Positions 1-450 of a DNA stretch of 450 bases are shown piece after piece (the stretch's first letter is position 1; every line of letters begins with the position of its first letter). Source of the DNA: Escherichia coli. Its GTDB lineage: Bacteria > Pseudomonadota > Gammaproteobacteria > Enterobacterales > Enterobacteriaceae. The position numbers and the translations under genes are program-made. Location: assembly GCF_003334765.1 (NCBI RefSeq), contig NZ_QOWT01000122.1; one strand, 5' to 3'. The notes beneath the pieces are model-generated. The model was not told the origin of the DNA, searched no databases, and saw nothing but the letters and a program-made list of their open reading frames with translations.

Positions 1-450
1 GAAGATGTTTTTCTTGCCTTTCTTCTCAACGGTCAGCAGACCTTGTTTGATCGCATACAGCGGAATAGCGTGTACCAAATCGCGCAGGGTGATGCCCGGC
101 TGCATTTTGCCTTTGAAGCGCACCAGAACGGATTCCGGCATATCCAGCGGCATGACGCCAGTTGCAGCAGCAAATGCCACCAGACCGGAGCCTGCCGGGA
201 AAGAAATGCCGATCGGGAAACGGGTATGGGAATCACCACCGGTACCGACGGTATCCGGCAGCAGCATACGGTTCAGCCAGGAGTGGATTACGCCGTCACC
301 CGGACGCAGCGACACACCGCCACGGTTCATAATGAAGTCCGGCAGCGTGTGGTGCGTATTCACGTCAACTGGTTTCGGATACGCCGCGGTGTGGCAGAAA
401 GACTGCATCACCAGGTCAGCCGAGAAGCCCAGGCACGCCAGGTCTTTCAG
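1..450 (-). CDS. acnB: Aconitate hydratase B (aconitase 2; bifunctional aconitase / 2-methylisocitrate dehydratase), internal fragment, partial at both ends
   Basis: Seen in sequence: the reverse complement read in the frame whose first codon is + strand 450..448 gives 150 sense codons with no stop across the whole window. The translation contains GSGxxH-like DGVIHSW and GGDSHTRF motifs and matches my recollection of E. coli AcnB through ...KGKKNIF. Codon usage is strongly E. coli-like: 16 of 17 Leu codons are CTG and 10 of 11 Pro codons are CCG. Established knowledge: the Asp-Ser-His motif and the upstream His are conserved active-site residues of the aconitase family. The identification rests on recalled protein sequence, not a database search. 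Confidence 0.95.

Follow-up and report, generated by a model that had tools for sequence, protein, structure and literature searches.

An accessory second acnB at the end of an insertion-sequence-flanked lactonase–citrate lyase module in Escherichia coli

We analysed a stretch of 450 nucleotides (nt) of Escherichia coli DNA (contig NZ_QOWT01000122.1 of assembly GCF_003334765.1), here called the window, that lies within a gene for the aconitase AcnB. The window probably represents codons 425–574 of an intact accessory gene, acnB2, which ends an insertion sequence (IS)-flanked module made up of a lactonase, a major facilitator superfamily (MFS) transporter and citCDEFXG; this module would serve a lactone pathway, and the interiors of its cit and acnB genes appear to have recombined with their core counterparts. 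All 5,426 genomes in a collection of complete E. coli genomes contain an acnB match to the window (5,426/5,426), at an identity of at least 99% in 23 of them, 95–99% in 5,398 and 90–95% in five. The two lower classes correspond to the core acnB, and each of the 23 genomes in the highest class carries a second acnB copy on a genomic island. Among these 23, the 15 listed are all 100% identical to the window, each with two acnB places. With the whole island gene as query, 21 genomes matched at 99.7–100% and ES1 and ST38 at 98.5%, all with two places and inside the module. In strain 746, the window coincides exactly with nt 1273–1722 of the intact island acnB (minus strand, positions 19125–21722 of locus L001; L numbers denote the loci compared). 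None of the listed matches of at least 99% lies between yacH upstream and yacL downstream, the setting of the core gene; all sit in the citG–acnB module. Two carriers, Santai and 21AR0173, were checked for a resident copy: besides the island gene, each has an intact core acnB in its usual place (lpdA-yacH-acnB-yacL), and the two genes of one genome differ at 95 sites in Santai and 82 in 21AR0173. Within this collection, the window haplotype is exclusive to the accessory second acnB copy, and the window itself very probably comes from such a copy. An initial annotation, made from the letters of the window alone, had concluded that it holds no accessory or novel content; at the DNA level that conclusion is not supported, given the confinement of the closest matches, in 23/5,426 genomes, to an island second acnB within an accessory operon. 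The island origin is invisible from the 450 bases because their protein is identical to the core enzyme and they include no island-diagnostic site.

The gene identity of the window is clear. Minus frame 0 is free of stops over bases 1–450 (G+C content 57%), and its 150-residue translation aligns without gaps to residues 425–574 of E. coli aconitate hydratase 2 (AcnB; PDB 1l5j_A), with 150/150 identities (E = 8e-100). The AcnB equivalog models head the NCBIfam matches of the window (TIGR00117, E = 7e-100, 335 bits over model positions 415–564; NF006690, E = 1e-96), and the models for AcnA, LeuC and homoaconitase reach only E >= 7e-10, so that no aconitase paralogue fits better than AcnB. The window thus lies inside an acnB coding sequence and encodes a central part of the protein (window positions 1–450, minus strand; codons 425–574 of 865, nt 1273–1722 of the 2,598-nt gene; haplotype 'island allele A'). 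Two computed motif positions, both on the minus strand and with the same residues as in 1l5j_A, are the GGDSHT codons at 223–240 (AcnB residues 495–500), presumably the Asp-Ser-His active-site motif typical of aconitases (Asp165-Ser166-His167 in the mitochondrial enzyme), and the GDGVIHSW codons at 277–300 (residues 475–482), which we take to be a conserved aconitase-domain segment with a catalytic-site histidine. No direct or inverted repeats of at least 12 nt were found in the window, and an Rfam scan of it gave no match at E <= 1. These results agree with the initial annotation where it had placed the window inside acnB in the middle of the protein, had seen no intergenic DNA, second gene, repeat or mobile-element signature within the 450 bases, and had anticipated no better-fitting paralogue. 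Its expectation of a near-identical, gapless alignment to AcnB of strain K-12 holds for the protein; the DNA departs from K-12 acnB at 15/450 positions, every one synonymous.

The island gene as a whole is a bona fide acnB, annotated so in RefSeq, and the enzyme that it encodes is an ordinary and known one. It spans 2,598 nt with one terminal stop and none internal, and aligns without gaps to K-12 acnB; its product scores 1,716 bits against TIGR00117 (cutoff 1,287) over model positions 1–844 of 844 and 1,575 bits against NF006690 (cutoff 782). In comparison with the E. coli housekeeping enzyme (acnB, b0118; PDB 1L5J), the island protein has the same length of 865 amino acids and is 99.1% identical, at a DNA identity of 96.8%: 84 nucleotides differ from K-12 acnB, 72 of them at third codon positions, and only eight residues (positions 1, 3, 71, 638, 858 and 862–864). 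Because so few residues differ, island AcnB is expected to have aconitase and 2-methylisocitrate dehydratase activity with a 4Fe-4S cluster. What separates the two genes is their edges and surroundings. They are similar from the start codon to about 9 nt past the stop, and their flanks are unrelated: citG lies upstream of the island gene and an IS66/IS100-flanked region downstream, whereas yacH and yacL flank the core gene. The protein termini are MLK and DRVIFPSVV in the island form and VLE and DGVIFQTAV in the core form, and three E. coli island alleles share the same ends (5' ATG-TTA-AAA...CAT; 3' ...ADRVIFPSVV*, as against ...ADGVIFQTAV* in the core). Core acnB occurs in 100% of complete genomes, island acnB in about 0.65%.

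The module around the island gene measures about 11 kb and consists of gntR (HutC/UTRA type) and, divergently oriented, genes for a 265-amino-acid Amidohydro_2 lactonase and a 449-amino-acid MFS transporter, followed by citC-citD-citE-citF-citX-citG and acnB. The gap between the MFS gene and citC is 5 nt and that between the citG stop and acnB 25 nt, with acnB preceded by its own GGAG ribosome-binding sequence, an arrangement that would be expected if acnB were the final gene of a single operon; a conserved hairpin past the acnB stop, described below, fits this as well. All six Cit proteins score above the curated NCBIfam cutoffs (bits/cutoff: CitC 588/262, CitD 144/65, CitE 452/443, CitF 815/501, CitX 265/158, CitG 641/477), so that the citrate lyase set is complete. 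A complete module is present in 31 of the 5,426 genomes and about four more have a truncated or split version that includes acnB, which brings the carriers of island acnB to about 35 genomes (0.65%). Three 5'-truncated modules, in B-JRPT-4119, E400634 and E500002, retain citF'-citX-citG-acnB only, or about 51–55% of the unit, and have lost lactonase, transporter and regulator. The modules fall into two allele groups, 99.4–100% and about 98.2% identical to that of strain 746, and the flanks differ between the groups. In strain 746, acnB lies between citG, upstream, and an IS66 fragment, downstream, with IS elements, an integrase, toxin–antitoxin genes and malX-malY in the surroundings, and the module is part of a composite island that exceeds 100 kb and lies next to gsp and kps. 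The same island also carries Ag43, pap remnants, IS100, ISEc38, a type I restriction–modification system, sul2-ISCR2 and two CP4-like toxin–antitoxin blocks; in strain 21AR0173, IS100 and a second lsr (autoinducer-2 uptake) operon adjoin the module downstream. Patchy distribution, variable flanks, and integrase and IS genes together mark the locus as a genomic island. Plasmid carriage was considered and set aside: no PLSDB plasmid record contains at least 80% of the module, and the matches there are core cit or acnB genes on mis-typed megabase 'plasmids'. In public contigs, the exact island AcnB protein was found 345 times and the exact lactonase protein 936 plus 370 times, all in E. coli. Full-text searches of the literature returned no description of a second, island-borne acnB in E. 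coli, of a lactonase-MFS-citCDEFXG-acnB operon or of an isocitrate lactonase.

We class the module with the citrate-lyase fermentation clusters already known from enterobacteria, as a variant set apart by its regulator, its transporter and the added lactonase and aconitase. The Klebsiella citrate-fermentation cluster consists of citS-oadGAB-citAB plus citCDEFG. Compared with the citCDEFXG-citT and citAB/dpiBA cluster of E. coli, the island Cit proteins are 98–100% identical (DNA 97.8–98.7% over 5.2 kb), whereas citT and citAB are missing and in their stead a GntR/HutC regulator, a COG3618 lactonase and an MFS transporter stand upstream and acnB downstream. The lactonase matches Pfam PF04909 (Amidohydro_2) over residues 4–257 (E = 1e-43) and aligns end to end with LigI (PDB 4d8l, E = 4.5e-24). 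Its segments DTHAHVF, VVDHF and WGSDWPH align with IDAHCHVF, VIDHMG and WGTDWPH of LigI, and the HxH, His and Asp motifs are kept; from what is known of LigI, we take the HxH, the His and the strand-8 Asp to be the catalytic residues. The nearest solved relatives, 2ffi and 4i6k, were deposited without an established substrate. The island lactonase thus shares PF04909 and its motifs with LigI and the other COG3618 lactonases (2-pyrone-4,6-dicarboxylate (PDC) hydrolase, 4-sulfomuconolactone hydrolase and L-fucono-1,5-lactonase), and differs from them in its genomic partners, which are aconitase and citrate lyase and not genes for lignin or aromatic degradation. The MFS transporter is of the organic-anion type, its best matches being the PgtP and D-galactonate transporter families, all below cutoffs.

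Comparison of the contexts in which this lactonase occurs identifies the gntR–lactonase pair as the constant element, with varying partners. In the E. coli island and in Enterobacter the pair is accompanied by an MFS transporter, citrate lyase and acnB (a remnant in Enterobacter); in Citrobacter amalonaticus by CitMHS, citrate lyase, acnB and oxaloacetate decarboxylase; in Klebsiella oxytoca by CitMHS, citrate lyase and oxaloacetate decarboxylase, beside acnB, two more aconitases, PrpF and an isocitrate-dehydrogenase-family gene; and in Escherichia fergusonii by CitMHS, with aconitases, PrpF and TctCBA nearby. The chromosomal operon of C. amalonaticus (L017) closely resembles the island module in plan: it reads gntR and, divergently, Amidohydro_2-CitMHS-citCDEFXG-acnB-oadGA(B), with the same logic and order and acnB directly after citG. 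It differs in its CitMHS transporter (MFS in the island), in the oxaloacetate decarboxylase genes after acnB and in its rmuC-ubiE-tat chromosomal context, the island module being IS-flanked; at the protein level, the lactonases of the two are 61% identical, the GntR regulators 57% and the AcnB proteins 88%. Two metagenomic Enterobacterales contigs (positions 10001–16251 of L024 and 3–9351 of L023) place gntR-lactonase-MFS at the core locus itself, in one case directly upstream of acnB-yacL and in the other between acnB and yacL, a hint that lactonase and acnB first became linked at the housekeeping locus. In Pseudomonas and Paraburkholderia, the gntR–lactonase pair is found with an MFS gene only. 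Two of these loci hold further aconitase-related genes. In K. oxytoca (positions 1–20795 of L005/L006), an aconitase-PrpF-aconitase-Iso_dh-AcnB array adjoins gntR and lactonase-CitMHS-citCDEFG-oadGAB, and in E. fergusonii (L022) a second lactonase, of the beta-propeller type (PF10282), accompanies CitMHS-aconitase-PrpF-aconitase, with TctCBA nearby; the tricarboxylate loci of both species look uncharacterised.

Because the lactonase is repeatedly linked to acnB, with or without citrate lyase, the arrangement suggests that the product of the lactonase is a substrate of AcnB. Under the pathway that we propose, the MFS transporter would import a hydroxy-tricarboxylic acid lactone, with isocitrate lactone as the simplest candidate, the lactonase would open it, AcnB2 would isomerise the product via cis-aconitate to citrate, and citrate lyase would split citrate into oxaloacetate and acetate. 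Aerobes could send isocitrate straight into the tricarboxylic acid (TCA) cycle, and facultative anaerobes would use AcnB to reach citrate, then citrate lyase and, where present, oxaloacetate decarboxylase. Private copies of acnB and cit under a GntR regulator could be uncoupled from the regulation of the core genes and thereby allow the pathway to run in the anaerobic gut, a rationale that draws on general E. coli physiology. We find it rather credible that a compound imported by way of the operon is passed on via AcnB to citrate lyase. That this compound is isocitrate lactone specifically is a tentative suggestion, isocitrate derived from isocitrate gamma-lactone being the chemically simplest candidate; isocitric lactone has reportedly been detected in metabolomics studies of human plasma, urine or stool, and of plant material. 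Equally tentative is the broader proposal that gntR, the COG3618 lactonase and a transporter, combined with AcnB (and, in facultative anaerobes, with citrate lyase and with or without oxaloacetate decarboxylase), would encode a previously undescribed route for the catabolism of isocitrate lactone or a related tricarboxylate lactone in Enterobacterales, which some extraintestinal or commensal E. coli lineages would have acquired as a mobile module and whose cit and acnB genes would evolve in concert with their housekeeping paralogues.

Alternatively, the module might be a second citrate-fermentation locus in which the MFS transporter takes over citrate import from CitT and the roles of lactonase and AcnB are unrelated or marginal. 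The close identity of the Cit proteins to the core citrate lyase speaks for this model, as does the known variety of transporters in enterobacterial citrate lyase clusters. Yet citrate reaches citrate lyase without aconitase or lactonase; the gntR–lactonase pair is conserved in 6/6 enterobacterial contexts while the transporter alternates between MFS and CitMHS; and lactonase-MFS-acnB is also found without citrate lyase. We regard a plain citrate locus as unlikely and retain the lactone pathway as the preferred reading.

The history of the module can be read from the edges of its genes. Similarity to the core cit cluster is confined to module positions 3128–8334; it sets in 6 nt into citC and breaks off 19 nt short of the citG stop codon. 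Within acnB, the sites fixed between island and core alleles are nt 1, 4, 7, 24, 546, 624, 627, 1929, 2097 and 2556–2591, a distribution concentrated at nt 1–24 and 2556–2591. The interiors, by contrast with these fixed ends, are mosaics of core-type sequence: island allele A and the core allele of strain 2012C-4221 show 0 differences over nt 1401–1600 and share a 291-nt identical tract, and island allele B has a single difference from the core allele of Santai over nt 2201–2400 and a single one from K-12 over nt 801–1000. A recombination test on six alleles with 92 informative sites gave a minimum number of recombination events (Rmin) of 22 and a permutation P < 0.001 in a test resembling the pairwise homoplasy index (PHI). 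Pairwise acnB differences number 57–113 sites between island and core alleles and 65–87 among core alleles, and the island alleles fall inside the cloud of core alleles, a divergent patch in ES1 excepted.

Outside E. coli, the Enterobacter module is 79% identical in nucleotide sequence to that of E. coli from gntR into the first 147 nt of acnB. There, a 42-codon acnB remnant follows citG (positions 17423–17700 of L003, or 9068–9340 of L004); it opens with (V)LKEYRKH, includes the island-specific Lys3 and runs into an in-frame stop, after which the sequence is unrelated. As this remnant and the intact citG–acnB arrangement of C. amalonaticus show, the citG–acnB junction is older than the E. coli island. 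We propose that an ancestral enterobacterial operon already ending in acnB entered E. coli and that the interiors of its cit and acnB genes were then repeatedly replaced, via homologous recombination or gene conversion, with core-type alleles, the termini being relics of the original genes; interior replacement of this kind would account for the identity of the window protein to K-12 AcnB. Two other origins were rejected. A recent duplication of the resident core acnB does not agree with the 82–95 differences within one genome, the unrelated flanks and the presence of the citG–acnB junction outside E. coli, and a foreign origin of the whole island acnB does not agree with an interior that lies within the E. 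coli allele cloud, foreign origin being kept for the termini only.

Two further observations concern the same genes. In the island cit region (positions 21748–26979 of L001), CitD and CitE share their RefSeq accessions with the core proteins of E2348/69, and the island and core forms of CitC (351 and 352 amino acids) and CitG (295 and 292) differ in length at their outer termini, mirroring the island-specific termini of acnB. The island allele of ES1/ST38 has a patch at gene nt ~601–800 (L011) with 22 differences per 200 nt from each other E. coli allele compared; this patch shares about 90% identity with those alleles and 76% with acnB of the Citrobacter operon. It may be a relic of the island gene from before conversion or an import from an unsampled relative within Escherichia, and no donor was identified among the alleles compared.

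Several points weigh against the reading of the window as part of an accessory acnB2 in a lactone operon. On the functional side, we infer the substrate of the pathway purely from gene content and linkage. Against the models of characterised equivalogs, the lactonase stays far under the cutoffs (137 against 500 bits for 4-sulfomuconolactone hydrolase, and 24 against 400) and falls outside the characterised specificity groups (PDC hydrolase, 4-sulfomuconolactone hydrolase and fuconolactonase). In Pseudomonas and Paraburkholderia, the lactonase–MFS pair has neither aconitase nor citrate lyase nearby. Enterobacter has lost the acnB of its module, and the operon copy is therefore dispensable where a core AcnB exists. 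Consensus scans of the module for promoters and terminators returned counts at or below the shuffled expectation, and because nothing rose above chance, co-transcription is read from gene spacing only. On the side of gene assignment, the window (nt 1273–1722) holds no site fixed between island and core alleles, so that it is assigned to the island by haplotype and not by a diagnostic marker, and the core acnB of a strain not yet sampled could have this haplotype too.

This last point leads to a second alternative, namely that the window comes from the housekeeping acnB (lpd-yacH-acnB-yacL) of some E. coli strain and has nothing accessory about it. Besides the lack of a diagnostic site, the identity of its protein to K-12 AcnB is what a core gene would show, and since island interiors exchange sequence with core alleles, a core gene with the window haplotype could exist. 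The nearest core allele seen, that of strain 2012C-4221 with yacL downstream, is only five mismatches away (5/450 window bases; 57/2,598 over the gene). The core acnB of Santai has at least 12 window mismatches. Against a housekeeping origin stands the survey itself, in which 0/5,426 genomes match the window at 99% or more through their core acnB and all 23 such matches are island copies. We consider a housekeeping origin improbable and continue to favour the island copy.

Least likely of all, and in our view quite improbable, is that island acnB is a functionless passenger, a core duplicate that hitch-hiked with the module and is kept intact only by gene conversion from the core copy: its interior is recombinant with core alleles, Enterobacter has dispensed with it and the cell already has AcnB and AcnA, yet the gene is intact and at full length in every island carrier listed, it has accumulated eight amino-acid against 84 nucleotide changes, the 82–95 sites that separate it from its own core copy in two carriers argue against recent intragenomic repair, citG–acnB is intact in C. 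amalonaticus and the lactonase-MFS-acnB linkage recurs elsewhere.

The case is a cautionary one, in that what looks at the protein level like a textbook housekeeping gene can be accessory DNA, revealed only by nucleotide haplotype and location. Pipelines for pangenomes, core-genome multilocus sequence typing (cgMLST) and orthology would likely merge acnB2 with core acnB, and recombination between the copies could distort allele calls and phylogenies. The operon is a candidate new nutrient-utilisation trait in E. coli lineages with large pheV-type islands and, if the proposed pathway is true, it would add a new substrate specificity for a COG3618 lactonase. It also illustrates cleanly how a mobile operon and two distant core loci can evolve in concert (in K-12, cit at 0.65 Mb and acnB at 0.13 Mb). 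The basic understanding of aconitase is unchanged by these results, and it is the genomic setting that is moderately interesting.

Two minor features of the island gene deserve mention. About 70 nt past its stop lies a hairpin of 14–16 bp (-23.8 kcal/mol) that is kept in both allele groups and may be the terminator of the operon; it is formed by a perfect 14-bp inverted repeat, TAGAACTCCGTCTA-ATC-TAGACGGAGTTCTA, at positions 19025–19055 of L001 (minus strand) and ~16670–16700 of L010. In the second island group, the 3-nt loop of this hairpin is reverse-complemented (GAT), as if the tip had been flipped.

The other feature is the openness of the antisense strand. The initial annotation had described a single uninterrupted reading frame across the window; the minus frame is indeed open throughout, but it is not the single one, since plus frames 0 and 1 are stop-free as well as minus frame 0, which makes three open frames out of six. 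Plus frame 0 has the same codon boundaries as the sense frame and is open because the sense strand is devoid of TTA, CTA and TCA codons in the window. When synonymous codons were resampled, 28% of trials kept plus frame 0 open and 0.9% kept both antisense frames open, and in the K-12 core allele one antisense frame is open and the second closed. Overlapping antisense genes were considered and rejected given the lack of a family match in an NCBIfam scan of both antisense translations, the explanation offered by codon usage and the closure of the second frame in K-12; both antisense frames are regarded as by-products of codon usage. In the full gene, the absence of TTA, CTA and TCA sense codons likewise explains why the antisense frame that shares the codon boundaries of acnB stays open for 507 codons (positions 18963–20483 of L001).

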